DNA of 64,000 nt from an uncultured Clostridia bacterium (GTDB taxonomy: Bacteria > Bacillota > Clostridia > Christensenellales > UBA1242): the NCBI GenBank assembly GCA_930971385.1, contig CAKNGB010000001.1:3670-67669 (forward strand), in the 5' to 3' direction. Numbering within the stretch: position 1 is the stretch's first letter; the number at the start of each line of letters is the position of its first letter. The translations under genes were made by a program, and so were the position numbers. The notes below the pieces were generated by a model. It saw only the letters and a list, made by a program, of their open reading frames with translations. It had not been told where the DNA came from and ran no database searches. Shown piece after piece: positions 3,001-40,405 of the stretch.

Positions 3001-5456
3001 CTGGCGAGGAAACAGAAATTTCTTCCATGTTTAAACTTTTGGAAAACGCAAAACTCGATGAAAACACCTATGCGTTCTCGGGCGACTTAGCAGTTAGATA
3101 CAGCACAACATCTTTCTATGGCAACATTTTGGCTATGCTTGTGGAAAGCGAAAACGGTTTTGTGCCATATATAAGAATTTACACATCCTCTATGAATTTA
3201 AACACATATATCTATCTTCTTGATGAAACAATCTACCTTGACCTTCATGGGCTTAGGTTAACTTTCAATTTAAGTGAAAATTCGATTAATGAAATTCTAG
3301 CCTTTGTTCAAGAAAACTTTGGTGTTGAGGAGTTGAACGCAACAGTTGCGCTTTCGGTTATCTTGCCAAAACTCAGTGCAATAACTCATGGCTGGTCTGT
3401 TGATAATGGACTTCAAATCAACATTTCTGATAATCTATATTACACCGAAACATCTTATTTCAAAGATATCGTTCTTCAAGCATTTATGGCGGAAACTGAC
3501 ACTCAAATTCTGCCAACGGGCGTGGTGATTGGCGCAAACATTGTTGACCCTAACACAGAAATTTATGATGATTACAGCGATTATCTTTTAAACGGCGAAA
3601 ATCCAGTCACATCAAACAAGAATTTCGCAGTTTACATCGACAATATCTCGATTGGAAAGAGTGCCGACTATCAAAATTCTATCACTTTTGAAAATGGAAA
3701 GGTAGTTTCTGTTGTTGGCTTTAACGATGTTAGTTTTGATGTTGCAGAATTTGTGGATGTTCATGTTTTAATGGATATTGTGGAAAAGGCACTTAGCTAT
3801 ATTAATTCAAACACCTTCCAACTTCGTATTGACGCAACTCTTCAAAATGGAAAGAATGAAACAAGAATAGGTGGCGATGTTATCCTCTCAATCACAAAAG
3901 CCGTGAAAGAAAATGAGGCGGAAACTAAGGTTGGCTTCACATTGTTTGGTGGTAAGCGTCTTAAATTGCAAGCCGATTTGACAATTGAAAACTATGCTCC
4001 ACAATTAGTTGAAACAACCAATGAAGAAACTATGGTGAGAACTTCGGAACATCAAATTTCCATCTATTACGACTCTAATCAAGTGGATGAAAATGGCTAT
4101 GTTCAAAGCGACCTTGGCGGACTTTACATTTCTTACACTCACGACCAAAACATCGGCACAAACTATTTCCGTGGTCATATTCAAAACACCGATTTAAATG
4201 ATAAAAATCAAAAAGCGGATATGAGTGATTTGATTGCTTTAATTCTTAATTTTGCAAACATTGAAATTGGCGACGAGGCAATGGAAAGTTGGCAACTAAC
4301 TGAAAACACAACCGACTTTAGTTTCCTTCAAAAACTTCTTGGAATTGGTGGCAATGATTTAAGTGATGAAATCACCGAAACCGACCAAATTTTAGGCGAT
4401 GTTTCAAGCATTTTAGCAATGATAGAAAGCATTTCGTTTAACAAGAATGAACAGAATGTTTATGAACTTGCAGTGGGTGTTGATTTAGGCGATAATGTGG
4501 CTGAAATTTCTGTTATTTTCGATAAAAACAACAATTTAAGCATAATTAATGCTGGAAACATTTCCTTTGAAAATAACAACATCACAGCAAGCATAGAAGT
4601 GCAGGAATATGATGAAGCGAATTTTGATTATAATATAAATAATTCTCACTTCGACCTATCCAACATTCCAGAATTTTTGGATATTGCTGTGAACACCTTA
4701 AACACAAAATCGTTTAACTATCAAGGCACAATAAATCTTGAAATGACAAAACTTGCAACAATAGATATCAATGTCGATTTATTTGGAAAATTTGATGAAA
4801 ATAATGAACTTTCGCTTTATGTTGAACTTGGCATTGTTCCAAATGGTCTTAGTACATTAGCATTTGATTCATTATTCAAAAGTCGTACAACTCAAATAAC
4901 AATAGAACATGGCGTTATGTCTATCATAAGACACACAACTAAGATTATCGGTAGTGAAACCCATGAGGCAACTTATAAATTAAGTGAAATAAACACTGAT
5001 AACATGTTGACAGTTATTGATGATATCCTTGGATTTAGCAGTTTGGCAGAAAGCATTATCAAAACGGTTATTGAAAATATAACACTGCCAACTCCAACTA
5101 TTGAAGAAGCAATGAAAGAGTTTAGTGTGACCGATACGGGTTATAGACTAGGGCTTGACGGATATAATGTGACTGGCATGGATGGCATTCAAGATATTAT
5201 CTATGTTGACCTTGGTGTTAGCAAAGGATATGATGTTAATATTAATAATGAAGAACTTGGTCAGTATGAAAAAACACTCAAATTCATTGAGTCCATTTCC
5301 ACATCCTTGAATGTTGATGATATGTTAATTGTGGACTTAACCTTAAAAAGCGTCAACGGAACTTCTTATCAGACTTCTTTAGGTGAAACAATTTATACGA
5401 ATGAGTGGTATAGACAACAATACATTTCATCGATTGGAACATTAAAAGAAAATTAA
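3..5456 (+). CDS. giant acidic Asn/Asp/Glu-rich repeat protein, 5'-truncated by the window edge (1817 aa visible); function unknown
   Basis: Frame 3 is open from nt 3: NEDSFVYFSVNDLSYKLDTTEV precedes the GTG at 66 that the ORF track used as start. That upstream stretch aligns with the end of the internal repeat unit (..LVYISLGGEVFALDVDNLDFERL / ..TIYLTYDGRTFALNIDNIDLSSF), so the true start is upstream of the window. Stop TAA at 5454-5456 is followed by a hairpin terminator. No family recognised. Confidence 0.85.
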   Translation, partial: NEDSFVYFSVNDLSYKLDTTEVENFDFSSLLPYLQSNVDTDALLEFLSRYTGVDFANLDLNSLMTELSIKENNVEEGHRFTISLGSLIVTIDCDENFNNISLTLREINYGGYNIKASVDTVELNREDFALNLTPTGEETDITSLLQLVENAKLNENTYALSFDLTISVDDMVVNGDVMAMLVQSGNELVPYVRFKMNEFEGFKGYIYLIDNTVYLNAQNLLLKFDINELNEDKLTEIEGVLKDFGIDLDVVETVSVILPTLENIKLTLLESGLQVVVDDVVIGDKLSLNNINLSVNLTNADDVILPSSAEILATLTDLESKENKDVKILLDNIKIGASTQNLDDITFEENEIFLQTNLDKKELNEFADIAPLTSIITNALGTKTLQGDVNLQVSKGEFKVDLTGFVKFDLDSLSVSADLTLKYENVSVDAKVYGFNLDESHLVYISLGGEVFALDVDNLDFERLMKDYGISQPAIDAVDVIKDIISVDINNLDLVNLSNRLNLKEIENGYALTFDEKEIKINYNETFNIFNFDVSAISYEGYVVKVGLDNVEINASDFAIDFVPTGEETEISSILFIEEYARLNETEQETTYALSSDLSVSVDDMTLTGNILARLVKSESGLTPYLRVKINEFKGFKGYIYLIDNTVYLNAQNLLLKLDIDDLTEEKLSEIEEILTNFGVSMEETEKFTLVLPTLSEISINWLENGINIATKNGLTINEQYNLSDISLSLITSNENDVILPEEVKVSATLNNLTNSAQNEFKLTLSSVKLGKNSLHLEDIAFGENSISLQTNTGMTTTDKFMDAMKIFDLAKNVLETKNVQGNINLTIENGETKIDAEGVVKFDLNNMAVSADLTLNYNGLNVSLSVYGFNIDVNRTIYLTYDGRTFALNIDNIDLSSFMETNEEVDVTETVVNIIKDVLGIDINNVDIANLTNQIFLNEIENGYTITFNDKTITLNYNELFNIFSVDLSKISYNGFYVKVNLSDVEINASNFAIDYTPTGEETEISSMFKLLENAKLDENTYAFSGDLAVRYSTTSFYGNILAMLVESENGFVPYIRIYTSSMNLNTYIYLLDETIYLDLHGLRLTFNLSENSINEILAFVQENFGVEELNATVALSVILPKLSAITHGWSVDNGLQINISDNLYYTETSYFKDIVLQAFMAETDTQILPTGVVIGANIVDPNTEIYDDYSDYLLNGENPVTSNKNFAVYIDNISIGKSADYQNSITFENGKVVSVVGFNDVSFDVAEFVDVHVLMDIVEKALSYINSNTFQLRIDATLQNGKNETRIGGDVILSITKAVKENEAETKVGFTLFGGKRLKLQADLTIENYAPQLVETTNEETMVRTSEHQISIYYDSNQVDENGYVQSDLGGLYISYTHDQNIGTNYFRGHIQNTDLNDKNQKADMSDLIALILNFANIEIGDEAMESWQLTENTTDFSFLQKLLGIGGNDLSDEITETDQILGDVSSILAMIESISFNKNEQNVYELAVGVDLGDNVAEISVIFDKNNNLSIINAGNISFENNNITASIEVQEYDEANFDYNINNSHFDLSNIPEFLDIAVNTLNTKSFNYQGTINLEMTKLATIDINVDLFGKFDENNELSLYVELGIVPNGLSTLAFDSLFKSRTTQITIEHGVMSIIRHTTKIIGSETHEATYKLSEINTDNMLTVIDDILGFSSLAESIIKTVIENITLPTPTIEEAMKEFSVTDTGYRLGLDGYNVTGMDGIQDIIYVDLGVSKGYDVNINNEELGQYEKTLKFIESISTSLNVDDMLIVDLTLKSVNGTSYQTSLGETIYTNEWYRQQYISSIGTLKEN
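66..3990 (+). repeat. intragenic tandem repeat, three units of ~1.3 kb (~433 aa); the third is more diverged and a fourth probably lies upstream of the window
   Basis: The anchor motif P(T/V)GEET(D/E)I(T/S)S recurs at nt ~400, ~1692 and ~2998 (spacings 1292 and 1306 nt). Long collinear similarity between units, e.g. GFKGYIYLIDNTVYLNAQNLLLK is identical in units 1 and 2. Confidence 0.8.
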
Positions 5457-5483
5457 ACCTCCTAAAAAGAGGTTTAATTTTTT
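5455..5483 (+). terminator. rho-independent terminator of the giant repeat protein gene
   Basis: AAACCTC (5455-5461) / GAGGTTT (5469-5475) stem followed by AATTTTTT. Confidence 0.7.
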
Positions 5484-5548
5484 ATGTTTTAGGTTTTTGT
5501 TAATATGAGAGGATAAATTTTAATAAAATATTTTCGCTGTTTCGCGGG

Positions 5549-5664
5549 GCGGGCGCAATAAAAAAGATTTTGCCCAAATGGCAGGTTGTTTAAACCAGCA
5601 CAAACAAAGGCAAAATCTTTTTGCTTGCAGGGCAAGCCCATGCATTGCATGGAATTGCGCCCGC
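5549..5664 (-). repeat. GC-rich four-way-junction (cloverleaf-like) palindromic element, family C copy 1
   Basis: Outer stem GCGGGCGCAAT (5549-5559) / ATTGCGCCCGC (5654-5664). It encloses three abutting hairpins: 14 bp AAAAAGATTTTGCC/GGCAAAATCTTTTT with a 34-nt loop (5561-5622); GCTTGC/GCAAGC (5623-5637); CCATGC/GCATGG (5638-5652). All pairs are Watson-Crick. The element ends on the first base of the metG stop codon. Strand is assigned only by analogy with copy 2. Confidence 0.6.
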
Positions 5665-7364
5665 TATTTAATTTCCAATTCTTGTTTAAATTTTTCAATC
5701 ATTTCATCATCAATACGCATAAAAAGTGGTTTTGGAGAAGAAATCTTATGCGCTTTTGAAATATTAATTATGCTTGCTTCTTCCCACATATCTTCGCTGT
5801 CAGGCGAGCTGGTAAAACCAAGTTGCTCCCAAATTTCCTTTGTTTTAGACGGAATGATTGGGCTTGCCACAATGGCGAGCGCCTTTGCCATGTTAAGCGA
5901 AAGGAATAAAACTTTCTTAGCGCCATCTAAATCTCCATTTTTAATCATTGACCAAGGCGCAGTTTTTTCAAGATAGGTGTTTCCAATTGAAGCGAAGCGC
6001 ATAATTTCTTTGTAGGCGTTTCTAAATTCGGTTTGTGAAAACATTTCAGCAATTGTTTTAGGGCAAGACTTTATTGCTTCCACCATTTCTTTGTCAAACT
6101 CGTTTAAGTTGTTTTTAATGTCGTCAAAGGAGATGCCAAGTTCTCCACCAAAATTCTTATTAATCATGTTAAGCGTTCTGTTGAAGAAATTGCCATATTT
6201 TCCCACAAGTTCGGCGTTGGTGTTAAGTTTAAAGCCTTCATAAGAAAAATCGCTGTCCTTATTTTCTGGGAAAATGGAAACGAGATAGGCTCTAAGTGCG
6301 TCAATATCCACATCGCTATTAAGCAAACTTTCGCAGAATATTCCCACCTTTTGAGATTTTGAAAATTTCTTGCCTTCAAAATTTAAGAAGTTGAAGCCAA
6401 CAACATTTTGTGCCAAGTTATATTTTCCACTTCCAAGTTCAATGCATGGGAAGAACACTGCGTGAAAGTCGATGTTATCTTTGCCGATAAAGTTGTAGAT
6501 TTCACATTCATCATTTTGCCAGCGGTCCTTAACCATTTCATTTCCACCAAGTTCTTTTGTGATGGAAATGTAGCCAATAGGCGCGTCAAACCACACATAG
6601 AAAACCTTATCTTCAAAATTTTTAAGTGGCACTTTAATTCCCCAAGGAATATCGCGGGTGATACATCTCGGCTTCAAGCCCTCATTTATCCATTTGTATG
6701 CCATATTGTAAACATAAGGGCGGAAGACATCCTTTTTGGAGTCTATCCAATTTTTAAGTTTATCTTGAAGTTTATCAAGGCGAATGTAAAGATGTTTAGT
6801 GTTCTTGAAAACGGCTTCGCGGTTGCACCAAACACATTTAGGATTTTTAAGTTCCTCTAAGTCATAAGTTTTTCCGCAGTTGTCGCACTGGTCGCCATAG
6901 GCTTTATCATATCCGCAATATGGGCAAACACCATAAACAAAACGGTCAGCAAGGGCAATCTTATCGTGTTCGCAATAGCACATCTTGCTTTCTTTTTCTG
7001 AAATATAACCGTTTTTGTTTAAGTCATTAAAAATCTCACAGGTCACTTCTTCGTGTGTTTTTGTGTTTGTTCCGCTGAAAATATCAAAGTTGATGTTCAA
7101 TCTTTTTGCAATATCTTTCATTTTGCCATTCATCATTTTGATATATTCGTTGATTTCCATATTCATGTTTTTAGCACTTATGAAACTTGCAGTGCCATAG
7201 TCATCCGTTCCGCTGACATAGATGGTGTCGTTGCCATAGGTCCTATTAAAACGCGCAAACACATCGCCAGGAAGCCAACATCCAGCCACGTGACCAAGGT
7301 GTGGCAAGCCATTAATGTATAACAGTGCCGAAGTCACCAAAATTTTTTTTCTTTTTTTATCCAT
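5664..7364 (-). CDS. metG: methionyl-tRNA synthetase
   Basis: Class I HIGH-type motif (LPHLGHV), KMSKS-type motif (KFSKS) and MetRS-type zinc knuckles (CPYCGY..CDNCGK). A GAGG RBS lies 6 nt before the ATG at 7364. An alternative ATG at 7376 overlaps the hisS stop (ATGA). Confidence 0.9.
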   Translation of the reverse strand: MDKKRKKILVTSALLYINGLPHLGHVAGCWLPGDVFARFNRTYGNDTIYVSGTDDYGTASFISAKNMNMEINEYIKMMNGKMKDIAKRLNINFDIFSGTNTKTHEEVTCEIFNDLNKNGYISEKESKMCYCEHDKIALADRFVYGVCPYCGYDKAYGDQCDNCGKTYDLEELKNPKCVWCNREAVFKNTKHLYIRLDKLQDKLKNWIDSKKDVFRPYVYNMAYKWINEGLKPRCITRDIPWGIKVPLKNFEDKVFYVWFDAPIGYISITKELGGNEMVKDRWQNDECEIYNFIGKDNIDFHAVFFPCIELGSGKYNLAQNVVGFNFLNFEGKKFSKSQKVGIFCESLLNSDVDIDALRAYLVSIFPENKDSDFSYEGFKLNTNAELVGKYGNFFNRTLNMINKNFGGELGISFDDIKNNLNEFDKEMVEAIKSCPKTIAEMFSQTEFRNAYKEIMRFASIGNTYLEKTAPWSMIKNGDLDGAKKVLFLSLNMAKALAIVASPIIPSKTKEIWEQLGFTSSPDSEDMWEEASIINISKAHKISSPKPLFMRIDDEMIEKFKQELEIK

Positions 7365-7372
7365 AAAATACC

Positions 7373-8656
7373 TCATTTTAATTTTTTAACAATCTCATCA
7401 AAACTCAATTTTTCCTGCGCCGAGGAGCGCATATCTTTAATTGTGTAGCGTTTCTCTTTCATTTCATCTTCGCCAAGCACAATGATGTATGGAAGCTTTC
7501 GCCTATTTGCTTCCTTCATTTTTGCCTTAAAACTCTTTCCTTCACCAACAATATCTGCTCGAATTTTTGCATTTCGTAAATCTGTCATAAGCGAAAGAGC
7601 AAACAGCATAGTTTCGTCAAACGCAACAATGCCAACTTGTGTTACCAAGTTTTCGTCGGTTTTAAATTTATCTTTAATTTCATCAAAAAGCCTTGTGATG
7701 CCAATGCTCATGCCCACGCCTTGAAACTTTCTTTCCGTGAAGTTGCCACAAAGGTTGTCATATCTTCCACCGCCACCAATAGCAAGATTTGAGTTTTCGA
7801 TAAACGCTTCAAACACGGTGCCAGTGTAGTAGTTATGTCCACGCACTATGGATAGATCGAAAGAATAGTTCTTTTTATCCATTTTAAGATATTTAAGGCG
7901 TTCATTTAAAGCCTTTAAATCCGAGATTCCTTCAAGGAAGGTTGGGTTGTCGGATAACTTTTCAACTTTTGCAATAATTGCCTCTAAATCGCCATTTTGC
8001 TTGGCAAGCAAGAAGGTTTGGTCAACTTGTGCAACAGTCAAACCACTTGCAATAAACATATTGGCAATTTCTTCCTCAGAAAGTTTTGCCATTTTGTCGT
8101 AAATAATCATAAGGTCGGAGATGTTTTTCGCTCCAATTCCCTCAAAAAAGCCAGCAAGAATTTTTCGATTGGAAATTTTAACATAGCAATTTAAGTTTAA
8201 CGCGCCAAGCGTGTCCTCATAAAGTTTAATACATTCAGCGTCGGCGGTTATCGACAAGTTTTCGCCAACAATGTCAGCGTCGCATTGATAGAACTCGCGA
8301 AATCTTCCTTTTTGAGGGCGTTCACCGCGATACACCTTGCCAACTTGATAGCGCTTAAAAGGAAATTCCAAAACATTTTCGTTCATGGCAACAAACCTTG
8401 CAAGAGGCACAGTTAAATCATAGCGTAAGCATAGGTCATTGTTGCCTTTTTGAAAACGATAAATTTCCTTATCAACTTCGCCACCACTTTTAGCAAGCAG
8501 AATTTCAGAGTATTCTGCAACTGGCGTGTCGAGAGGCATAAAACAATTATTTTCAAAGACTTTTCTTATCTTTGAAAGCATATTTTCAAACACAATTTCC
8601 TCTTCTGGCATAAGTTCCCAAAAGCCCTGAGGTTTTCTTGGAGTTATAAGTTTCAT
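7373..8656 (-). CDS. hisS: histidyl-tRNA synthetase
   Basis: Class II HisRS motifs (RYDLTVPLAR, FREFYQCDADIVG, GGGGRYDNL) plus a C-terminal anticodon-binding domain. GGAG RBS. Stop is TGA. Confidence 0.9.
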   Translation of the reverse strand: MKLITPRKPQGFWELMPEEEIVFENMLSKIRKVFENNCFMPLDTPVAEYSEILLAKSGGEVDKEIYRFQKGNNDLCLRYDLTVPLARFVAMNENVLEFPFKRYQVGKVYRGERPQKGRFREFYQCDADIVGENLSITADAECIKLYEDTLGALNLNCYVKISNRKILAGFFEGIGAKNISDLMIIYDKMAKLSEEEIANMFIASGLTVAQVDQTFLLAKQNGDLEAIIAKVEKLSDNPTFLEGISDLKALNERLKYLKMDKKNYSFDLSIVRGHNYYTGTVFEAFIENSNLAIGGGGRYDNLCGNFTERKFQGVGMSIGITRLFDEIKDKFKTDENLVTQVGIVAFDETMLFALSLMTDLRNAKIRADIVGEGKSFKAKMKEANRRKLPYIIVLGEDEMKEKRYTIKDMRSSAQEKLSFDEIVKKLK

Positions 8657-18043: not shown

Positions 18044-18120
<77 letters not shown>

Positions 18121-18165: not shown

Positions 18166-18286
18166 CTAAGGATTTGAACCTACGGTTCACCCGTTCCGGC
18201 GGAGTGTTGCAGGGGCAACACTCGTTCGAGCGGTAAACAAGCGCACGGGCTTGTTTACTAAATCGCTCTCCCTACCCTCGCAACCG
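18166..18286 (-). pseudogene. tRNA-fMet-derived inverted, degenerate copy carrying two inserted hairpins (family B copy 1)
   Basis: 18169-18184 is the exact reverse complement of the tRNA T-arm (18092-18107, 16 nt). 18271-18285 equals the tRNA 3' end (18105-18119, 15 nt). On the minus strand GCGAGGGTAGGGAGAGCG resembles the tRNA 5' end GCGAGGTAGAGCAGC. The 3' acceptor strand is missing, so it cannot fold as a tRNA. Internal hairpins are 9 bp (18202-18223) and 10 bp (18233-18258). Confidence 0.5.
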
Positions 18287-19402: not shown

Positions 19403-21073
19403 TTATTTAACCTTAAACGAGTCTTTAAGCGAAATGGTGGAGTTAAAGATTAAGTTGTCTTTTGTGCTGTCTTTGTCAAGGCAATAGTAGCCTTTACGCA
19501 TAAATTGGAATTTATCTTCCACTTTTGCCGTTTTCAAAAAGTTTTCAGCAAATGCCACACTTTCTGTCATGGAATTTGGCGTTAAAAGTTCTTTAAGTGA
19601 AACTCCTTCTTCCAAGGCTTTCATAGGGTCAACATATTCCTCTTTAATAAGGTTTTTGAAATCACGAATGGTCACTTTAAAGCAATTTTTGGCAGAAACA
19701 AAGTGAATTGTTCCCTTGCATTTAATTCCAGAATTATCTTGTCCGCTTTTTGTGTTTGGAAGATACTCACATTCAAGGTGGTCAATCTCGCCATTGTCTT
19801 TTAAAACAGCCTTGTTGCATTTAATGATATACGCGCCTTTAAGCCTAACAATTCCGCCTTCCACAAGCCTGTTGTATTTTGGAGGTGGGTTCAAACTGAA
19901 ATCTTCCTTTTCAATGTAGATTTCTTTGCTAAATAGTGCCTTGTGAGAGCCAGCATTTTCGTCGTTAGGATTATTTTCAATTTCAATTTCCTCGCTGTCT
20001 TTATCATAGTTTGTGATGATAACTTTAAGTGGGTCCAAAACCACCATAGCGCGAGTGGCAATGTTGTTTAAGTCGTTTCTAATGTGATAGTAAAGCGCGG
20101 AAAGAGGGATAACGCTGTCGGCTTTCGTGACGCCAGCACTTTTTAAAAAGTCTTTTATTCCTTGCGCTGTGTAGCCACGCCTTTTCATGCCAACAATAGT
20201 TAAAAATCTTGGATCGTCCCAACCTAAAACAAGGTTCGAGTCCACAAGTCTTCTTAAATAGCGCTTGCCCAAAAGCACATTTTCAAGGTTGAGTTTTGCA
20301 AATTCAATTTGGCGTGGAGGATATGGCTTTTTCCAGCCTTTTTCAAGAACCCAGTTATACAGCGGGCGGTGGTCCTCAAAGCTCATGTCGCACAAACTGA
20401 AAGTGACACCTTCCAAGGCATCTTCAAGAGGGTGCGCAAAATCATACATAGGATAAATGCACCACTTATTTCCAGTGCGATAATGGCTCATGTGTTGAAC
20501 GCGGTAGATAACTGGGTCACGCATATTCATATTAGGGTGTGCCATGTCAATTTTTGCGCGTAAAACCACTTTCCCTTCTGGATATTTTCCTGCTTTCATG
20601 TCGCGAAAGATTTTCAAACTTTCCTCAATTGGTCTATTTCTATATGGGCTTTCCTTACCAGGAGTTGTCAGTGTTCCGCGAGATTTAGAAAGTTCCTCGG
20701 CACTTTGCTCGTCGATGTAAGCATCGCCACTTTTAATTAAGTTTTCTGCGATTTCATAAATTCCGTCAAAGTATGCTTCGCTGGCATAGACGAGTTTTTT
20801 TGGAGTGTAGCCCAGCCACTTAAGGTCGGCAAGATAACTGTCTGCAAAGTCGCCATCCTCTTTAGAAGGGTTTGTGTCGTCCATTCTAAGATAGGTGTAG
20901 CCACCATACTTTTTGGCGGTTTCAAAGTCAATCATAATCGCTTTGCAGTGCCCAATATGCCAATAGCCACTTGGTTCTGGTGGAAAGCGTGTGATGACCT
21001 CTTTTGCCTTTCCGCTTTCAAGGTCTTTGTTTATTTCTTCTTCAATAAAATTTGTCGGTTCAATAAGTTTCAT
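19403..21073 (-). CDS. glnS: glutaminyl-tRNA synthetase
   Basis: RFPPEPSGYWHIGH (GlnRS-type HIGH region). The 556-aa length and C-terminal beta-barrel anticodon-binding region are typical of GlnRS rather than GluRS. Confidence 0.85.
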   Translation of the reverse strand: MKLIEPTNFIEEEINKDLESGKAKEVITRFPPEPSGYWHIGHCKAIMIDFETAKKYGGYTYLRMDDTNPSKEDGDFADSYLADLKWLGYTPKKLVYASEAYFDGIYEIAENLIKSGDAYIDEQSAEELSKSRGTLTTPGKESPYRNRPIEESLKIFRDMKAGKYPEGKVVLRAKIDMAHPNMNMRDPVIYRVQHMSHYRTGNKWCIYPMYDFAHPLEDALEGVTFSLCDMSFEDHRPLYNWVLEKGWKKPYPPRQIEFAKLNLENVLLGKRYLRRLVDSNLVLGWDDPRFLTIVGMKRRGYTAQGIKDFLKSAGVTKADSVIPLSALYYHIRNDLNNIATRAMVVLDPLKVIITNYDKDSEEIEIENNPNDENAGSHKALFSKEIYIEKEDFSLNPPPKYNRLVEGGIVRLKGAYIIKCNKAVLKDNGEIDHLECEYLPNTKSGQDNSGIKCKGTIHFVSAKNCFKVTIRDFKNLIKEEYVDPMKALEEGVSLKELLTPNSMTESVAFAENFLKTAKVEDKFQFMRKGYYCLDKDSTKDNLIFNSTISLKDSFKVK

Positions 21074-21118
21074 ATTTTTCTCCTAAATTTAGTTTTTTCT
21101 TTTTAAGACAAATAAAAG

Positions 21119-21715
21119 TCACTGGACACCAAGTTTAAGGTTTTTAAGTTTACTTTTAATGCGTGTTAAACTGTTGTCTATGCTCTTTCCGCTGATTTTA
21201 AGAATTTCGGCTATCTCTTTGTAGGAATATCCTTGAAGATAATATCTTAAAACCTCAAACTCCTTTTTAGAAAGTGCTTTTTTGATTGTTAACACAAGGT
21301 TTTGATAGTTTTCTTTTTCCACCACGCGTTCGTCTGGCGACACTTGCATGATAAGGTTAACTGGCAAGAACTGCTCGTCGTCGGAATTATCAGAAAAACT
21401 TTGCAAGGAAACGGAATTTGAAAGGGGTGCGTTTTTCTTGGTGTTTGCTTTTTTAATTGCCGACTGAATTTGATGTTTGATGCAGGTGACAGCAAAGGTT
21501 TTAAAAGTGCTTTTGTTTTCTGAAAAATTTTTAATCGCCTTGTAAAGCCCAATCATGCCCTCTTGCACAATATCTTCAAGTTCTCCGCCGATGATAAAAT
21601 AACTTCTTGAAATTTTAACCACCAAATCTTTATATCTTTCAAGCAATGTGTTCTCAGCGTTTTCATCACCTTTTTTGGCAAGTTTAACAAGTTCTTCATC
21701 TGTCATTTTTTTCAT
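21119..21715 (-). CDS. sigH: RNA polymerase sigma factor, SigH (Spo0H)-like
   Basis: RSYFIIGGELEDIVQEGMIGLYKAIKNF and the C-terminal region 4 (SYKEIAEILKISGKSIDNSLTRIK) closely resemble my recollection of B. subtilis SigH. Start is uncertain (21715 or 21733). Confidence 0.8.
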   Translation of the reverse strand: MKKMTDEELVKLAKKGDENAENTLLERYKDLVVKISRSYFIIGGELEDIVQEGMIGLYKAIKNFSENKSTFKTFAVTCIKHQIQSAIKKANTKKNAPLSNSVSLQSFSDNSDDEQFLPVNLIMQVSPDERVVEKENYQNLVLTIKKALSKKEFEVLRYYLQGYSYKEIAEILKISGKSIDNSLTRIKSKLKNLKLGVQ

Positions 21716-21787
21716 GCTTATAATATAACACATTTAAAGTGAAATGTGTCCAATTTTTTTTAAATTTTTCGTAATTTTTATAAGATA

Positions 21788-21814
21788 TAAAAAAATCAAG
21801 CATTTTCGCTTGAT
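21788..21814 (-). terminator. terminator between the ankyrin gene and sigH
   Basis: ATCAAGC gaaaat GCTTGAT followed by T7 on the minus strand. Confidence 0.65.
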
Positions 21815-21824
21815 AATTTATCTT

Positions 21825-22499
21825 TTAATGAATATATGCCACTTCGTTTGGTTTGAAAATTTGCATTAAGCTTTCCTTTAAAACGGAAAATCTACAGATG
21901 TCGCAAGGCGTTTTGTTTTGTTTGTTTTTAACAAGCGTCGCACCATTAGAGTAAAAGAGGTCAGAAAAGTTGCAGGCGTCTTGAAGAGTGGTGTTTTGCA
22001 TAGCGTAATGCCAAGGTGTGTCACCAAATTTATTCTGCACATCAATCGCTCGTTTTTCCTTTTCCACAAACATTTCGCTTATAGCATAATTTCCAGCAAA
22101 TGAGGAAATGTGAAGAGGTGTGTCGCCGTTATTATTCTTTTCTAAAATAAGCCTTGGGTTTTTTCTTGATAAGTAATTTGCAATTTCAAATTGGTTCAAA
22201 AATGAAGCCACATGAAGCGGAGTGTTTCCTTTATTATTTTTTACCTTTAAATTTGCACCTTTTTCCACCAAAAATTTTACCATTTCAAAATTCCTGTCGT
22301 AAATTGCATAGTGCAAGGCGGTGTTTCCAAATTTATCCTTCTCGTCCATGTTAAAAGTGGCTTGTTTAAGGTTATTAATAAATCCTCTATCATTTTCAAA
22401 AACTGCAAAGTGAAAAGCGCCTTGGTCAAATGGTCTAAAATAATTTGTCATCATGCCGTCAACTTTATAGATTGTTTTTTTCGCTTTTTTATAGTTCAT
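21825..22499 (-). CDS. ankyrin-repeat protein
   Basis: At least four ANK repeats (GNTALHYAI..MVKFLVEKGANL; KGNTPLHVAS; NGDTPLHISS; FGDTPWHYA). GGAGG RBS. No signal peptide. Confidence 0.85.
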   Translation of the reverse strand: MNYKKAKKTIYKVDGMMTNYFRPFDQGAFHFAVFENDRGFINNLKQATFNMDEKDKFGNTALHYAIYDRNFEMVKFLVEKGANLKVKNNKGNTPLHVASFLNQFEIANYLSRKNPRLILEKNNNGDTPLHISSFAGNYAISEMFVEKEKRAIDVQNKFGDTPWHYAMQNTTLQDACNFSDLFYSNGATLVKNKQNKTPCDICRFSVLKESLMQIFKPNEVAYIH

Positions 22500-22690
22500 A
22501 CATCCTCCATAGACTAAGTTTACACCATGAAAAAAGCAAAGTCAATATGTTATGAAAATTTAATTTGTATTTTTGAAAAATTCGCCAGAAATTATATATT
22601 TTATCAAAAGTAAGTGTGTTTTTAATGTTTTTTTAACTTTTTATTCAATTATTACATAATATTTTTAATAATTTTAAGCAAAATAATGGC

Positions 22691-23179
22691 ATGAAAAAGA
22701 AATTTTTGTGCTTACTTTTAATTTTTTCCATGCTCGTATTGGGTGGTTGTTTTGCTAAAAATATTAGTTCAGCAAACATTGTGCGTGATGAGGCGAAGGT
22801 GGGAGGAAGTTTAAGTTTTGTTTATAACCATAATGATAGGTGCGCTTATATTGGTGGCGAGGGCGAATTTATGGAGTTCTACAAAGGTGATTTGTCGCTT
22901 TCGGCGGGCAATCGTGTGGGGCTTAAAGTGATTGCACCAAGTGAGGTTAAGGACTATGGCAAAGTGACGCTTGAAATGGGCGGACAAAGTTATTCCGACT
23001 TATTCCAAGTGGTTTCAGGGCAAAAACAAAACTACTTTTACATCTATCCTGCGTTCAGTGAGGAAAATCGCGAGGTAAGCATAAAAATTAATTGGGCGGA
23101 TGATATTGAAAGCCAAGAATATAAGGTCTACATTGTCAGTGGCACAAAGTTTTTAAATGAAAACGGCGAGGTTGTTTAA
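22691..23179 (+). CDS. lipoprotein, function unknown
   Basis: Signal peptide with lipobox MLVLGGC. Confidence 0.7.
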   Translation: MKKKFLCLLLIFSMLVLGGCFAKNISSANIVRDEAKVGGSLSFVYNHNDRCAYIGGEGEFMEFYKGDLSLSAGNRVGLKVIAPSEVKDYGKVTLEMGGQSYSDLFQVVSGQKQNYFYIYPAFSEENREVSIKINWADDIESQEYKVYIVSGTKFLNENGEVV

Positions 23180-23308
23180 TGTTGAATTGTGAGCTAATTT
23201 CTGGTTTAAAATTAAGTGAAATCCTATCAAATAATTTATTTAGCCTAAAATATTAGTTGAATTATAGGTCAGCAATAAAAAAATATTAAAAAATATCTTG
23301 AAAAACAC

Positions 23309-23338
23309 TTGACAAAACCTTTTTTCATAGGCTATAAT
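23309..23338 (+). promoter_or_regulatory. consensus promoter of tRNA-Glu and the downstream structured RNA
   Basis: TTGACA (23309-23314), 18-nt spacer, TATAAT (23333-23338). Confidence 0.65.
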
Positions 23339-23357
23339 GACTTAGCGTAAGAAATTT

Positions 23358-23432
23358 GGTCTCGTGGTCAAGAGGTTAAGACACCGCCCCTTCACGGCGG
23401 TATCAGGGGTTCGATTCCCCTCGAGATCACCA
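23358..23432 (+). tRNA. tRNA-Glu (anticodon TTC)
   Basis: Hand-folded cloverleaf GGTCTCG/CGAGATC, anticodon stem CCGCC/GGCGG, T-arm AGGGG-TTCGATT-CCCCT, encoded CCA. The anticodon loop reads CCTTCAC, i.e. C rather than the near-universal U at position 33. Confidence 0.85.
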
Positions 23433-23440
23433 AAAAATTA

Positions 23441-23589
23441 GGACAGACACCAACATCGTTTAACGCGGGCACGGAAAACAAGTTTCCTAACCGCTACTAT
23501 GTTGGTTTCTCCGCCTAGTCCTCTTCCGCGTAGGTGATTTTCAATTTATGCTTGTCGGGCAAAGCCCTTCTTCAAGCAAAATTGAAAAT
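23441..23589 (+). ncRNA. unclassified structured RNA, family A copy 1
   Basis: Begins 8 nt after tRNA-Glu and ends before the terminator at 23632-23670. Module 1 is an extended hairpin: P1 23449-56/23499-506, P2 GCGG/CCGC 23465-68/23491-94, P3 GGAAA/TTTCC 23473-77/23483-87. Module 2 is the hairpin 23537-23589. It is homologous to 25935-26191 (minus strand) with compensatory changes. Confidence 0.6.
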
Positions 23590-23631
23590 TAATTAAGATA
23601 CATTTTTAATTACCAATATAATTATATAAGT

Positions 23632-23670
23632 AAACAAGTTCGAAAAGCATCGCCTTTTGCTTGTTTTTTT
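23632..23670 (+). terminator. rho-independent terminator of the tRNA-Glu / family A RNA transcript
   Basis: AAACAAG...CTTGTTT stem with inner AAAAGC atc GC(C)TTTT, followed by T7. Confidence 0.65.
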
Positions 23671-23674
23671 GTTT

Positions 23675-23845
23675 CACGACCAAACGCAACTCGCAAACGC
23701 TTTCGAGTTGGTCGTGACTTACGAGGTTTTGATTATAGTAAAGTTATGTAGGAATCGAACGGGCGGTAAAGAAAAGTTGCCGGTGTGCAAGTTTTCTCCG
23801 CCCCGGCGTGAAAGCGGAATAACTTAGTTGGACGGGTTACTAATG
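23675..23845 (-). ncRNA. GC-rich structured element immediately downstream of comFC (family B copy 2); candidate ncRNA
   Basis: Hairpin 23675-23716 (CACGACCAA..CAACTCG / CGAGTTGGTCGTG). Hairpin 23761-23803 (GGGCGG-AGAAAAgTTGC / GCAAgTTTTCT-CCGCCC). T-loop-like GTTCGATTCC on the minus strand (23751-23760). Collinear similarity to 18166-18263. Strand is tentative. Confidence 0.4.
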
Positions 23846-24649
23846 TTAAAGTTCAACATTTTCGTTTTCTTCCTTTTTTAATGCGTTTCTGGCAAGAGCG
23901 CACACAAAGATATTGTTTGCGTGTTTTGAAAGTATTTTCGCGCAGGTATTTAAGGTGGCACAGGTGGTTATGATGTCATCCACAATCAAAACATTTTTGT
24001 TTTTCACAAGCTCTTTATCTTTCAAATTAAAAACGCTTAAAAGGTTCTTTTGCCTTTCAAGATAATTTAAAGTTTTTTGTGATTTTGTTTCAGAAACTTT
24101 TTCCAAGGTTTCAAGGCACGGCAAGTTTAAAATTTTGGCAAGATTTTTAGCAAGGAGTTTCGATTGATTGAAACTTCTTTCTTTTTCTTTTCTTTTCGTC
24201 ATTGGCACATAGGTTATAAGGTCAATTTTCCAGCCCTTTATTTCTTTGGCAATAATTATTGCATAGCCTTTGGCAAGATACCGCTTATTGTCAGATTTAT
24301 ATGAAAGCAAACTTTTCCTTACTAAATCTTTATATAAAAAGGGTGCTCTTGCCTTTTTAAAATATCGCTTATTTTTTTGGCAGTGGTCGCAAATAACCGC
24401 TTCATTCCCTATCGGCTCGTCGCAAATTAAACATCTTTTTCCATCGTTTTTAGGCAATAATTTTTCACAATTAGAGCAATAAGGTTTCTCATAAAAGGAG
24501 GGGATGTCGCGCCCACAAAAAACACATTTAATATCATCAGGGAAAATTAATTTATTAAAAAAAATTGATATTTTCTTAAAAATATCATATTTTTTACGTT
24601 TTTTTTGAGTTTTTTCCTTATTTTTTAATGATTTTTTCATATTTTTCAT
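23846..24649 (-). CDS. comFC: ComF family protein (phosphoribosyltransferase domain, N-terminal CxxC zinc finger), paralog 1
   Basis: CVFCGR..CSNC..CLIC..CDHC zinc-finger cysteines and the PRTase motif VLIVDDIITTCAT. Confidence 0.85.
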   Translation of the reverse strand: MKNMKKSLKNKEKTQKKRKKYDIFKKISIFFNKLIFPDDIKCVFCGRDIPSFYEKPYCSNCEKLLPKNDGKRCLICDEPIGNEAVICDHCQKNKRYFKKARAPFLYKDLVRKSLLSYKSDNKRYLAKGYAIIIAKEIKGWKIDLITYVPMTKRKEKERSFNQSKLLAKNLAKILNLPCLETLEKVSETKSQKTLNYLERQKNLLSVFNLKDKELVKNKNVLIVDDIITTCATLNTCAKILSKHANNIFVCALARNALKKEENENVEL

Positions 24650-24651
24650 TT

Positions 24652-25383
24652 TTATTTATTTTTCATAAGTCTTTGGCGGACAATTTCATAGACCACAATT
24701 CCAGCCGAAACACTGGCGTTAAGTGAGTTTACTTTGCCAAAAAGTGGAAGAGAGATAACGTCGTCACAATATGCCTTTATGCTTTGTTTTGTGCCTTTGC
24801 CTTCAGAGCCGATAACAATGCCAATTTTTCCTGTGAGGTCGGTTTTGTAGATATCCTTTCCGCCAATTTCAGCGGAGTATATCCAAAGTCCGTTTTCTTT
24901 CAGCGCGTCAATCGCTTCTTTCAAATTTGTGACGCGAGCAATTCTCATGTTGCTGACAGCACCAGCACTTGTTCTTATCACAGTTTCATTCACTTGGCAA
25001 GCGCGCATTTTTGGAAGTATTATTCCATGCACGCCAGCACACTCGCAGGAGCGGATGATTGCGCCAAGGTTATGCGGGTCCTCAATTCCGTCGAGAAGCA
25101 CAACAAAAGCGTCTTCATTTTTCTCTTTGGCATAGTTTAGAATGTCGTCAACATCACAGTAAGAAAAATCCACAGTTTCAGCAATATATCCTTGATGATG
25201 TGAGGTGACTGAAATTTTGTCTAAAACATTTTTTGGCACAAACTCACACTTAATTTTCATGCTTTTTGCTTCTCGGATGATTTCATCTTTACGAGAGGCA
25301 TAGTTTTTGTCGATATAGATTTTGTTTATCGTTTTTTCGCTTTTAAGAGCCTCTAAAACCTGATTTCTTCCTTCAATATTCAT
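24652..25383 (-). CDS. rlmB: TrmH/SpoU-family 23S rRNA 2'-O-methyltransferase, RlmB-like
   Basis: N-terminal EGRNQVLEAL substrate-binding domain and SpoU methylase motifs (DGIEDPHNLGAIIRS, IGSEGKG, LNASVSAGI). Overlaps mrnC by 4 nt. Confidence 0.85.
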   Translation of the reverse strand: MNIEGRNQVLEALKSEKTINKIYIDKNYASRKDEIIREAKSMKIKCEFVPKNVLDKISVTSHHQGYIAETVDFSYCDVDDILNYAKEKNEDAFVVLLDGIEDPHNLGAIIRSCECAGVHGIILPKMRACQVNETVIRTSAGAVSNMRIARVTNLKEAIDALKENGLWIYSAEIGGKDIYKTDLTGKIGIVIGSEGKGTKQSIKAYCDDVISLPLFGKVNSLNASVSAGIVVYEIVRQRLMKNK

Positions 25384-25757
25384 ACTTCCTCGCTAACTGA
25401 AATTTTTAAGATTTCTTTCAATCTTTCCTTTTGCTCTGTCAGATACAAGAACCCAACAAGCGCTTCAAAAGCGGTGGCTTTTTTATACTCTTCTTCATTA
25501 AAGTTTTTTGCTTTGTGTTTAGACTTAGCATTTCTTGCACGCCTCACAATTTCGCTTTCTTCAAAAGATAGCATTGGCAAAAGTTTTTCAAGCACTTCCT
25601 TTTGATGTTTGGCGTTGCAGAACTTTTTTGCTTTTTGATGATAGTAATTTAAATTTGAAATGCCACCTTTAACAACAAATTCACGGACAAACAATGTGTG
25701 CACGCCGTCGCCAATAAACGCTAAGGCGAGAGGGGAGAGGTTGTCAATTTTTTCCAT
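25380..25757 (-). CDS. mrnC: mini-ribonuclease III
   Basis: LAFIGDGVHTLFVRE and ATAFEALVGFLYL RNase III signature residues. 125 aa with no dsRBD. Confidence 0.85.
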   Translation of the reverse strand: MEKIDNLSPLALAFIGDGVHTLFVREFVVKGGISNLNYYHQKAKKFCNAKHQKEVLEKLLPMLSFEESEIVRRARNAKSKHKAKNFNEEEYKKATAFEALVGFLYLTEQKERLKEILKISVSEEV

Positions 25758-25934
25758 GTTTTTCCTTTTATATAAACTTTATTGTTTTTCATGTTTTGTG
25801 TAAAGACATAATCTTTTAATTTTTAGCAAACCGCATTCTTTAAGCAATGAGTGAAGGATTGAAGAAGATTTTTGAAAACAATATAAATATAATTAAACCA
25901 TTTTGCCAGCAACTACCACTTACATACTCTAAAC

Positions 25935-26191
25935 AATTTTTGATTTTGCGAGGGGAAGGGCTTTGCCCGTCGAGCATAAATCAAAAATTAAATGGGGACA
26001 CCGAAAATGTTTATCATTTTTGGGGATAAGGAGTAAACAAACGAAATGGTAAGTGTTTTGAATACTTTCAAAGCACGAAATGAAGTGCTGTTTGCGACGC
26101 GGATGAGGATTGGGATGGGAAACCAACGTAGTAGCCGTTAGGGAAGCCACTCCTTCCCGTGTCGGCGTTAAGCGAAGTTGGTGTCCGCACC
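25935..26191 (-). ncRNA. unclassified structured RNA, family A copy 2 (with a 104-nt insertion)
   Basis: Starts 3 nt after the ychF stop codon and lies in the 437-nt gap upstream of mrnC. Module 1 is 26094-26191 (P2 GCCG/CGGC, P3 GGGAAG/CTTCCC). Module 2 is 25935-25989 (12-bp outer stem AATTTTTGATTT/AAATCAAAAATT, apical GGGC-aaa-GCCC). The insertion is 25990-26093. Confidence 0.6.
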
Positions 26192-26194
26192 AAT

Positions 26195-27289
26195 CTAGTT
26201 GTTAAATCTAAAAAGCACAACATCGCCGTCTTGCATCACATAGTCTTTGCCTTCCATTCTCACTTTGCCTTTTTCTTTTGCGCGTAAAAACGAGCCTGCT
26301 TCCACAAGGTCGTCATAGGAAACAATTTCCGCTTTGATGAAACCTTTTTCAAAATCGGAGTGAATTTTTCCAGCAGCCTGAGGTGCTTTTGTGCCTTTGT
26401 GAATGGTCCACGCGCGCACTTCTTTTTCGCCAGCAGTGATATAACTCATAAGCCCAAGAAGGTCATAACTTGCCACAACAAGTTTTTCTAGTCCTGACGA
26501 TTTAATGCCAAGTTCGTCTTTAAACATCTGCCTTTCGTCTTTGTCGAGTTTAGCAATTTCCTCTTCAATTTTGGTGCAGAGGGCGACCACTTTGGCGTTT
26601 TCTTTTTCCGCCACTTTTTTCACTTCCTCCACAAACTTATTTGTTTCTTTTGCCAAATCTTCTTCGCCGATATTGGCAACATAGATAACTGGTTTCATGG
26701 TTAAAAGTGAGAAGTTCTTTAAGATTTTTTCTTCGTCCTCTGAATATTGCAAACTTCTTGCACGACCGCCTTTTTCAAGCACCTCTTTAATTCTTTTCAT
26801 AACTTCAACCGTTGTCAGCAAGGTTTTGTCGCCAGTTTGCTTTGAAAGTTTTGCATTTTTTTCAATCACCTTTTCCACTTGCTCTAGGTCGGAAAGCGCC
26901 AGTTCCATTTCAATGGTTTCAATGTCGCGCACAGGATTAATCGAGCCTGAAACGTGGATGATTTTGTCGTTTTCAAAACATCTAACAACGTGCACAATGG
27001 CGTCAACTTCGCGGATATGGCTTAAAAATTTGTTGCCAAGCCCTTCGCCATGACTGGCACCAGCCACAAGCCCTGCAATATCCACAAACTCAATGCTTGC
27101 AGGCGTAATCTTTTGCGTGTTATACATTTTTCCCAAAACATTCAGCCTTTCATCTGGCACATCCACCACGCCGATGTTTGGCTCGATTGTGCAGAAAGGA
27201 TAGTTCGCACTTTCTGCACCAGCGTCAGTTATTGCATTAAACAAGGAACTTTTTCCCACATTAGGAAGCCCCACAACTCCAATTTTCAT
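26195..27289 (-). CDS. ychF: redox-regulated ATPase YchF
   Basis: [14 protein letters not shown]-loop, a TGS-like C-terminal domain, 364 aa. GGAG RBS before the ATG at 27289; the track start at 27295 is GTG. Confidence 0.92.
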
Positions 27290-27479
27290 AAACACTCCAT
27301 GATGTTATATTAATAATTTTTTGATTATCTTTGATATTATAGCAAATTTGAAAAGTTTTTTCAATTAAAGTGGTGTAAAAAATATGATATTTTCTTTTGT
27401 CAACCGATATTTTTAATAAAATTATGCTGTTTTCCTTTAAAATTAAAGTGAAAAAGAAAAGGGAACGGTTTTCCGCTTC

Positions 27480-31067: not shown

Positions 31068-31261
31068 AAAATCCTCCATATAAAAAATTATAACATTTTT
31101 AAGATATTTTGTCAATTATTGTCTAAATTTAATTAAACTTGAACTAATATTTTTAAGTATGTGTAAAATGTGGATAAAATTAAGTTAAACAGTTGAAATT
31201 TTTTTTAATTTTTGGTAAAATACCATAGATAAATTGTAGAATAAGAATAATTGGAGTTAAT

Positions 31262-33964: not shown

Positions 33965-34036
33965 TTTTCACATTCTTCTTTTTTCACTATTGACAAGGTG
34001 ATATATTCGTGTTAAAATCTATGAAAGTGAGGAAAA

Positions 34037-34501
34037 ATGAATACGGTTGATTTTGCAGTTGATTGGTGGATAAAGTATTTATCTGGCGAAGAGCATGACG
34101 ACGAAATGCAAGAGTTTGTTGATAAGAATTTTTATGATGATAAAAGAGCGTTTGGCGCTTTAAAGATTTTGGCAGAATTTTTGGATAATGCCTATGAATA
34201 CGCCAGGCTTCAAAACAGGCTTAAACCATGGCAAAAGGAAAAGTTTGCAGGTTTTTTAAAGGTGGGCATAAAAAACGAAATCACAAAAAACGGCTATTGC
34301 TATCTTTACACCGATGAAAACGGTTCTGCGCGCGGGCTTCTAGGTCTTGTTTCCTATTATGCTTACATTGAGCATGACGAGGCGAGTGCTTTTCCAAATC
34401 ATTTTGAAATGTTCATAGACCGTGACAAAGTGGAAATAAGACGGCGAGAGGATGAAAAGTATGAAATTCTCTTTCAAAAGCCAAAAGAAAGAGAAAGATA
34501 A
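34037..34501 (+). CDS. hypothetical protein (154 aa)
   Basis: GAGGA RBS. Followed by a terminator. No motif recognised. Confidence 0.65.
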   Translation: MNTVDFAVDWWIKYLSGEEHDDEMQEFVDKNFYDDKRAFGALKILAEFLDNAYEYARLQNRLKPWQKEKFAGFLKVGIKNEITKNGYCYLYTDENGSARGLLGLVSYYAYIEHDEASAFPNHFEMFIDRDKVEIRRREDEKYEILFQKPKERER

Positions 34502-34504
34502 AAA

Positions 34505-34533
34505 AATATGCACAACGAAGTGCATATTTTTTA
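34505..34533 (+). terminator. rho-independent terminator
   Basis: ATATGCAC aacgaa GTGCATAT followed by TTTTTT. Confidence 0.7.
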
Positions 34534-34663
34534 TGAAAAGATTTTTAATTTATTAATGAAAAGATTTATAGATTATTTTTATTAATTTTTTTTTAAAGTT
34601 CAAATTTCTTGCCAAAGTGTTTTGAAACATTAAAGCAAGGAAGTTTTAATTATTTTTTAATAA

Positions 34664-34867
34664 TTAAACGTTATATTTTTTCTTGAATTTTTCAACATTA
34701 CCACTTGAGTCAACAATTTTCTTCTTGCCAGTGTAAAATGGGTGGCACTTATTGCAAATATCAATTTTCAAAGTGTCGCCTTTCACACAAGAGCCTGTTT
34801 TGAAAGTGTTTCCACACGCGCACACAACGGTCACTTCATGGTAATCTGGATGTATTTTTTCTTTCAT
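34664..34867 (-). CDS. rpmE: 50S ribosomal protein L31 (zinc-binding type A)
   Basis: [28 protein letters not shown]. Confidence 0.93.
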
Positions 34868-34879
34868 ATTCCTCTCCTT

Positions 34880-35137
34880 TTAGTCACCAATGTATGGAAG
34901 TAATGCCATGTTTCTTGCTCTTTTAATAGCGTTTGCAAGTTCTCTTTGATGATAAGAGCAAACACCAGTTTGGCGTCTTGGCAAAATTTTACCTTTTTCT
35001 GTGACATATTTTCTTATTTTTGCAATATCTTTATAGTCGATTGTCTTTTCGCCAGCCACACAGAAAGCGCAAACTTTTTTCTTAGAAGGCTTGCGATATT
35101 TTTTAACAACCTTTTCTTCGGTTTTAACTTCGCTCAT
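34880..35137 (-). CDS. rpsR: 30S ribosomal protein S18
   Basis: IDYKD...[34 protein letters not shown] pattern. Confidence 0.93.
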
Positions 35138-40399: not shown

Positions 40400-40405
40400 A
40401 ATTCC

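Follow-up and report, generated by a model that had tools for sequence, protein, structure and literature searches.

Four-way-junction repeats behind metG and in other intergenic regions of an uncultured Clostridia bacterium: ancestral insertions with conserved stems

The window analysed in this work is the whole stretch of 64,000 nucleotides, which belongs to a genome of 1.05 Mb (G000, 97% complete). It contains the hisS-metG gene pair. The metG product was identified as a methionyl-tRNA synthetase (MetRS) by profile matches of the ORF at 5664-7376 on the minus strand to PF09334 (E 1.5e-134) and PF19303. Its convergent neighbour on the plus strand is an ORF of more than 1,800 amino acids that ends at 5456. 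The features of this locus that concern the present analysis are the following:

5447-5483, bidirectional: terminator-like hairpin common to both convergent genes
5549-5664, minus strand: metG copy of the four-way-junction repeat (the forward orientation of the family corresponds here to the minus strand, which is the metG strand)
5549-5559: first arm of the closing stem, which pairs with 5654-5664
5561-5622: long hairpin hp3, with a 14-bp stem (5561-5574 with 5609-5622) and a 34-nt loop (5575-5608)
5623-5637: short hairpin hp2, with a 6-bp stem (5623-5628 with 5632-5637), GCTTGC-AGG-GCAAGC on the plus strand
5638-5652: short hairpin hp1, with a 6-bp stem (5638-5643 with 5647-5652), CCATGC-ATT-GCATGG
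5654-5664: second arm of the closing stem, with base 5664 doubling as the last base of the metG TAG stop codon
5664-7376, minus strand: metG (methionyl-tRNA synthetase), last gene of the hisS-metG pair
7376-8656: hisS, upstream partner of metG

The original prediction had drawn the segment 5549-5664 as a four-way junction of 116 nt with an 11-bp closing stem, hairpins of 14, 6 and 6 bp and exclusively Watson-Crick pairs. Minimum free energy folding confirmed this observation, since the segment refolded identically. An inverted-repeat search found the two 11-nt arms to be 100% complementary, all of the pairs (37/37) were Watson-Crick, and a single base was left unpaired on each side of the junction (A5560 and A5653). 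The predicted RNA folding energies were -59.1 kcal/mol for the plus strand (z -7.2) and -60.6 kcal/mol for the minus strand (z -7.6), and none of 200 shuffled sequences was as stable. With DNA parameters the corresponding values were -40.9 and -41.2 (z -7.5 and -8.0, respectively), and the fold was retained within a 261-nt context. The metG stop codon (5664-5666) has one base in common with the element, and the only terminator-like site that was predicted for metG is located 65 nt past the element. Consequently, the metG transcript should cross the element, which would thus belong to the metG 3' UTR, past the stop codon and ahead of the predicted terminator. As to position, therefore, the earlier suggestion of a 3'-UTR RNA structure agreed with these data.

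BLAST comparison of the window copies with the genome returned self-matches only. The repeat family surfaced through a scan in which 9-bp closing stems were ranked by folding energy, which yielded ten further elements with a clear consensus: GGCGGGCGAAAG-T-CCATGC-nnn-GCATGG-GCRYGC-nnn(n)-GCRYGC-T-GnCTTTTTGC-[loop]-GCAAAAAGnC-A-CTTTCGCCCGCC. A covariance model (R1) was trained on those ten copies only, leaving out both copies of the window. R1 assigned 57.7 bits to the metG copy (E 5.4e-11, minus strand) and, with filters off, 50.0 bits (E 3.3e-9, plus strand) to a second element of the window:

40283-40400, plus strand: diverged family member between an arsR-family gene and queH, recognised with R1, with the broader model R2 and by its fold

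This element has a 14-bp closing stem, hairpins of 6, 8 and 10 bp and a 34-nt loop, in the helix order of the metG copy but on the plus strand. An element of the same architecture had been pointed out before at 40284-40399, with the remark that its primary sequence differed almost completely from that of the metG copy. Its score of 50 bits (E 3e-9) with a model blind to it identified it as a homologue, and the remark on its sequence was therefore overstated. R2, a broader covariance model than R1, recovered all 13 genome copies, including the metG copy (78.6 bits), the copy at 40283-40400 (71 bits) and a diverged thirteenth copy at G000:C6:72460-72607 (45.3 bits). The genome-wide search for further copies by covariance model and descriptor, which had been put forward as a check, thus revealed at least 13 copies in place of two loci only. 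Directly past the copy at 40283-40400, inspection by eye showed a good promoter-like site for queH (40406-40435; TTGCAA, an 18-nt spacer and TGTTATAAT), so that this copy sits between the stop codon of the arsR-family gene and the queH promoter.

A permissive descriptor scan detected 49 four-way junctions in the genome versus 3 in a block-shuffled genome, more than expected by chance, and the clean GC-rich junctions among them were those of this family. The possibility that the element behind metG was a chance or terminator-like palindrome was discarded on these numbers and because neither strand has a T-run after the closing stem. An intrinsic terminator formed by the element itself was rejected for the latter reason, the terminator-like site being located at 5447-5483. 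Members of the family are 112-148 nt long and contain four helices and perfect terminal inverted repeats of 11-14 bp. Viewed as duplex DNA, they have a variable centre bordered by terminal inverted repeats of 22-23 bp; two short GC hairpins interrupt the left arm, so that either strand folds into a closed four-way junction. A genome search found the 23-mer arm inside copies only. All 12 dispersed copies are intergenic, and a stop codon precedes five of 11 copies by 0-10 nt. As judged by eye from translations, the neighbours of the other copies include spoIVA-like, rplS, murG, murI, glmM-like and yebC-like genes and a sigma factor gene; no functional theme was found among the flanking genes, which are unrelated housekeeping genes. 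A weak motif, GCGTG..GAAA..TTTGCTTGTGCG, was noticed by eye 5' of the repeat in three to five copies, and BLAST gave no support to a 5' extension of the repeat through it. A second family of four-way junctions was also observed, which is AT-rich, 84 nt long and closed by the stem ACTATGTGATG...CATCACATAGT. Its copies lie outside the window:

G000:C5:73055-73138, C1:218843-218926 and C7:34861-34944: copies of the AT-rich four-way-junction family

A member of the GC-rich family lies at a distance of about 220 nt from one of these copies, and the two kinds of repeat thus nest in the same spacers.

Comparison of the window with Rfam at gathering score matched only two real tRNAs located elsewhere in it, and a permissive search at both window elements gave nothing better than E 0.15. 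Accordingly, a tRNA, a tRNA-like structure, a T-box or any other Rfam family was rejected as the identity of these elements. A tRNA-like outline directly behind an aminoacyl-tRNA synthetase gene had been considered intriguing; there was no Rfam match, the neighbours of the other copies are unrelated, and 23 orthologues of metG have no such element, and this link was abandoned. For annotation, this means that the element is not a tRNA mimic, a riboswitch or a regulator of MetRS, and that similar GC-rich islands in these genomes are best interpreted as repeats.

A search with R1 of 36 genomes of the same genus and 24 genomes of the same order gave no match. When 150 genomes of the same genus were searched with this model, one species was matched (MAG BRZ_NS__bin95, CALVWC01), and a pattern scan of GTDB species representatives singled out the same species. 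In this sister species all of the assembled copies (11/11) have flanks orthologous to those of the G000 copies, and the arsR-queH site falls in a contig break. A third strain, which belongs to the species of the window and was found in metagenome assembly ERZ1643247, contains nine copies, which occupy these same positions. Insertions specific to one lineage were found neither in the two species nor in the third strain. By comparison with relatives, 23 other members of the genus have an AT-rich spacer after metG that lacks a four-way junction and mostly contains a plain hairpin followed by a T-run; the fold is therefore not conserved in the orthologous metG 3' regions of these members. Similarly, the spacer between the gpr-like gene and murI is about 35 nt long in relatives versus about 200 nt in G000. 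Since all copies are orthologous and relatives are free of the element, the insertions are older than the split of the two species. These results showed that the element behind metG is an old insertion, made in the common ancestor of the two sister species, which belong to a small-genome genus of uncultured gut Clostridia, and that it has not moved since. An earlier suggestion, that of a young MITE/REP-like repeat, was thus correct in regarding the element as a dispersed structured repeat (at least 13 copies), but the repeat is not young, as it predates a split at 23% four-fold divergence.

The same data bear on whether the family is a non-autonomous transposon with current or recent mobility, that is, a MITE or a REPIN moved by a Y1/HUH or another transposase. 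Perfect terminal inverted repeats of 11-12 bp, the insertion relative to relatives and the presence of a Y1_Tnp (IS200-like) relic in both element-bearing species would agree with it. However, apart from the lack of lineage-specific insertions, neither target-site duplications, which had been proposed as something to look for, nor a common target motif was found in the flanks of 12 copies, and there is no longer element with these ends. The only Y1_Tnp match of the genome is an N-terminally truncated ORF of 108 amino acids that covers profile positions 42-121, and therefore lacks the first 40 or so, and its flanks are unrelated to the element; Y1 genes are also present in 15 genus members devoid of the subfamily. 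No match to the whole element was found in the phage and plasmid collections searched, and no mobilising enzyme was identified for the copies. Consequently, we consider mobility of this kind improbable. Two specific identities were rejected: a RAYT-type REPIN, for which there is only the truncated Y1 relic with flanks unlike the element, and a classical (DDE-type) MITE, for which the terminal inverted repeats are present and both the target-site duplication and a parent element with the same ends are absent. The Y1 ORF itself (L090:1450-1860, corresponding to G000:C4:80160-80570) has its last 82 nt or so tandemly duplicated, and the same relic occurs in the sister species.

Conservation of the fold was evaluated in a model-guided alignment of 22 copies and 34 pairs (748 cells). 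Of these cells 97.2% were paired, and 13 of the 34 pairs had changed on both sides; none of 500 shuffles reached the observed pairing, and register shifts did not come close either. As a neutral yardstick, four-fold degenerate sites of 42 flanking genes were compared between the species of the window and the sister species: 974 of 4,253 sites differed (22.9%), the difference over all aligned gene sequence being 9.7%. Within the orthologous stems only 10 of 704 sites differed (1.4%; binomial P about 1e-63), so that change in the stems is about 16-fold slower than at synonymous sites, which means that the elements matter to the cell. Divergence between the species reached 15.5% in the junction bases and small loops and 35.5% in the hp3 loops. 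Four of 11 hp3 loops had been replaced outright, and the other seven diverge by about 11%, roughly the neutral rate. The metG copy follows this pattern, its differences from the sister species (three changes) being confined to the hp3 loop. Variants of the stems that are specific to one copy are common to its orthologues; concerted evolution is therefore not the reason for the conservation, and purifying selection on the stems is. These results showed that purifying selection allows the stems hardly any change, whereas the hp3 loops drift and have now and then been exchanged between copies or lineages. Selection of this type shows that a function or a cost exists and does not specify which one. 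Over so short a time, selection on pairing alone would yield the observed stem pattern. The hp1 stem is identical in 23 of 24 aligned copies (the other has one G-U variant), and different hp1 sequences are present in the copy at 40283-40400 and in the 5S-linked copies described below. The near-invariance of hp1 (CCATGC/GCATGG) hints at sequence-specific recognition by some factor, in addition to pairing.

The strand on which selection acts was addressed through mismatches and orientation. Mismatches on the forward strand comprised 6 G-U versus 5 A-C, indicating that there is no RNA-type asymmetry. Relative to the neighbouring genes, seven copies are in sense orientation, three are antisense and two lie between convergent genes, and relative to GC skew seven are on the leading and five on the lagging strand. 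Hence, no orientation bias by transcription or replication was detected among 12 copies. Strict pairing on both strands, mixed orientation and the equally good fold as DNA indicate that the selected feature is strand-symmetric. Hp2 loops of four nucleotides are all G-N-N-A on the forward strand, which is a weak sign of a strand preference, or else of shared ancestry. Cumulative GC skew along contig C1 is lowest near 30 kb and highest near 395 kb, and the replication origin is probably located inside the window (at about 20000-35000), between its two copies.

These observations were confronted with two explanations of what the fold does. According to the first, the element would be a cis-acting RNA structure of host transcripts, in 3' UTRs or between cistrons, protecting mRNA against 3' exonucleases, providing an RNase III-type processing site (through stacking of the closing stem and the hp3 stem to about 22-25 bp) or slowing termination at abutting stop codons. 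In Escherichia coli, mRNA stability and translation are reported to be influenced by REP elements located near stop codons. The frequent start of copies just after stop codons, the position of the metG copy before a terminator-like site and the G-N-N-A tetraloops of hp2 fit such a role. However, at least two copies would be transcribed in the opposite polarity: the antisense copies C7:25830, right after a stop codon, and C2:81487, in an operon spacer, are judged from their positions to be certainly transcribed. Moreover, some other copies lie beyond terminators, and G-U pairs are not favoured over A-C. For these reasons a role confined to RNA in cis is regarded as rather unlikely.

According to the second explanation, the four-way junction would form in DNA that is supercoiled or single-stranded (at replication forks, in the wake of RNA polymerase or in DNA taken up by transformation) and would be recognised by a structure-specific host protein; HU-like and RuvA-like proteins, topoisomerase, and primosome or recombination factors were considered as candidates. 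REP/BIME elements are known to bind gyrase and IHF. Strictly Watson-Crick pairing whichever strand is considered, G-U being as rare as A-C, and an orientation that is independent of transcription and replication argue for this explanation, and the option of a DNA-level cruciform or recombination substrate, already contemplated in the original prediction, is somewhat favoured by strand symmetry. On the other hand, long loops kinetically disfavour the extrusion of cruciforms from duplex DNA, and with loops of 34-70 nt and a span of 90-120 nt extrusion would be unfavourable here; no candidate protein was found, and several copies, being next to stop codons (within 10 nt) or in an operon spacer, are certainly transcribed. 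We therefore treat a DNA-level role as a tentative possibility, to which the following two sets of results are relevant.

Firstly, some elements coincide with the limits of exchanged DNA. The hp3 loops are either 30-37 nt or 62-70 nt long and have no motif in common, and inspection by eye revealed no convincing promoter inside them. At the C2:267 site, the loop present in the sister species is of the type seen in the paralogue C1:155369. In the third strain, 17 consecutive informative sites of the element at C1:155369-155514 are of the sister-species type, and both flanks are of the G000 type; this patch of 82-215 nt is confined to the element. At the locus under study, metG (window 5547-7376) is 99.2% identical to that of the sister species, with differences at 3 of 181 four-fold sites versus 20-30% of such sites in the neighbouring genes, and the similarity stops at the outer edge of the element. 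Taken at face value, this comparison points to metG being a recent inter-species recombination tract whose left end lies at the outer edge of the element. The coincidence of short recombination patches with elements, as well as the abrupt change from 99%-identical metG to unrelated sequence at the edge of the element, would agree with an action at the DNA level. In practical terms, elements that mark such patches are a helpful tool for studying the population genetics of these uncultured gut bacteria at strain level.

A further possibility considered was that of an RNA gene, retron-like or otherwise encoding a guide or structured RNA. The topology resembles that of msr-msd and a variable hp3 loop could resemble a payload; this resemblance is one of topology only. 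Against it, no reverse transcriptase (RVT_1) is encoded in the 97%-complete genome, which effectively refutes retrons, there is no Rfam match, and copies occur in both orientations relative to neighbouring genes. Furthermore, the hp3 loops showed no significant match to the rest of the genome except for one paralogue loop, and captured "spacers" or guides were rejected on this basis. A TnpB/omega-RNA system was likewise discarded, as no TnpB is present in the genome. An RNA gene of this class is thus very improbable.

Secondly, related junctions were found next to 5S rRNA and tRNA genes. R2 detected compact four-way junctions of 85-90 nt in genus members G064, G063 and G030, and a descriptor scan of 246 kb of G030 revealed one clean junction of 77 nt. 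These results indicated that the architecture is genus-wide and that the sequences are lineage-specific. In the diverged copy at G000:C6:72460-72607, the final bases of the 5S rRNA gene recur in reverse complement as the right arm, which is contiguous (GCAGTGTTCTATTTTCCCGGGCC), and the terminator-like hairpin of the rRNA operon is located inside the hp3 loop. This arrangement was found in three species of the genus:

L137:3461-3608 (G000:C6:72460-72607), L141:1501-1648 (G003) and L142:1501-1649 (G004): 5S-linked junction

In G004, a C-to-T change in the 5S gene is matched by a G-to-A change in the inverted copy. Similarly, the tRNA-Asn gene (L137:313-458, corresponding to G000:C6:69312-69457) is followed by a terminator-like site and then by an inverted copy of its anticodon-arm segment (CGGCTGTTAAC and CGCAAGGTC), which is split by two hairpins; the resulting junction comprises 146 nt (z -9.2) and holds the terminator-like site in its loop. 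A perfect inverted copy (10-16 nt) of an internal segment of the gene itself was found within 100 nt downstream in five of 35 tRNA genes, and upstream in one tRNA gene only. Genes with such copies include:

window 18044-18120 with about 18169-18184, G000:C1:159346-159431 and C1:325457-325532: tRNA genes, among them those for fMet, Leu-caa and Phe

Since the terminator lies between the two halves, pairing in the 5S and tRNA junctions is hard to explain at the RNA level. One transcript would rarely span both halves of the outer stem in these relatives, and the outer arms nonetheless covary with 5S between species, which again would agree with a DNA-level role. A wider interpretation is that four-way junctions are a genus-wide device at gene 3' ends, in which a two-hairpin module and an inverted copy of about 22 nt of the adjacent sequence bracket the terminator, the metG family being a dispersed offshoot of it; we regard this as doubtful. 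Its clearest examples would be the 5S rRNA and tRNA-Asn junctions, whose outer arms consist of sequence of the stable RNA itself. If it were true, a mechanism at the level of DNA or of antisense RNA would recognise or generate the junctions, through a structure-specific protein or templated copying. The diverged member built around the 5S 3' end is the most intriguing lead obtained, and the link to 5S rRNA and tRNA 3' ends provides a concrete, testable entry to function.

Considering these results together, the family is probably a small set of nested-palindrome repeats that go back to ancestral insertions, whose stems are under selection and which have a strand-symmetric role based on structure, similar in kind to those of REP/BIME or BOX elements. 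The target of selection would be pairing within a strand as such, in whichever of the two is single-stranded, and not an RNA of a given polarity. The metG copy would be a passive passenger of the 3' UTR, lying after the stop codon and before the terminator shared with the convergent gene. There, its fold of about -60 kcal/mol would most plausibly constitute a 3'-end barrier or insulator that impedes 3' exonucleases, it would sit in the path of the terminating ribosome, and it would have no functional tie to MetRS or tRNA. We infer transcription through the element and any effect on metG, and selection may just as well act primarily at the DNA level. Among the competing explanations, a DNA-level role is given a real but minor share of our belief and an RNA role in cis a smaller one, while continuing mobility carries little weight and a retron-like or guide RNA next to none; most of the remainder goes to a role of structure only, in DNA or in RNA.

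Several known repeats offer points of comparison. The REP/BIME/REPIN elements of Proteobacteria are also GC-rich intergenic palindromes, often located just after stop codons and in either orientation, whose structure is kept by compensatory change, which occur in 3' UTRs and which possibly act both as DNA and as RNA. However, REPs are single imperfect hairpins of 20-40 nt, present in hundreds of copies and with a cognate RAYT, whereas the element described here is a perfectly paired four-way junction of 110-150 nt in 13 copies, and it differs from REPIN-RAYT systems in having no intact Y1 gene. The pneumococcal repeats BOX (boxA-boxB(n)-boxC), RUP and SPRITE resemble it in being modular, with paired terminal modules around a middle of variable length, and BOX is likewise a repeat of low-to-moderate copy number of a low-GC Firmicute, located at gene ends and co-transcribed with its neighbours. 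BOX forms one long stem-loop with a repeated boxB middle and shares no sequence similarity with the element; in the latter, the middle is non-repeated, effectively neutral and of two size classes, and two extra hairpins turn the structure into a four-way junction. Correia elements of Neisseria and the ERIC/RU MITEs have terminal inverted repeats, a length of 100-150 bp, intergenic insertion relative to relatives and foldability in transcripts in common with it, but the element lacks the target-site duplication, the parent IS with the same ends and the presence/absence polymorphism of MITEs. Retron msr-msd regions share an a1/a2-like terminal stem, short hairpins and one long hairpin; they differ in that the element is multi-copy, in both orientations, without a conserved branching-G context and without a reverse transcriptase in the genome. 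There is also a likeness within the genus, to the compact relatives of 77-90 nt, which also have a closing stem and three abutting hairpins; the subfamily described here stands apart by the long, variable loop of one arm (about 35 or 65 nt), by its very few copies and by being fixed at orthologous sites in two species. No description of such closed four-way-junction repeats was found by full-text literature searches or in Rfam, and repeats folding in this way are apparently an undescribed class of bacterial repeats. By analogy, the element works like REP/BIME or BOX in kind and is a member of neither family.
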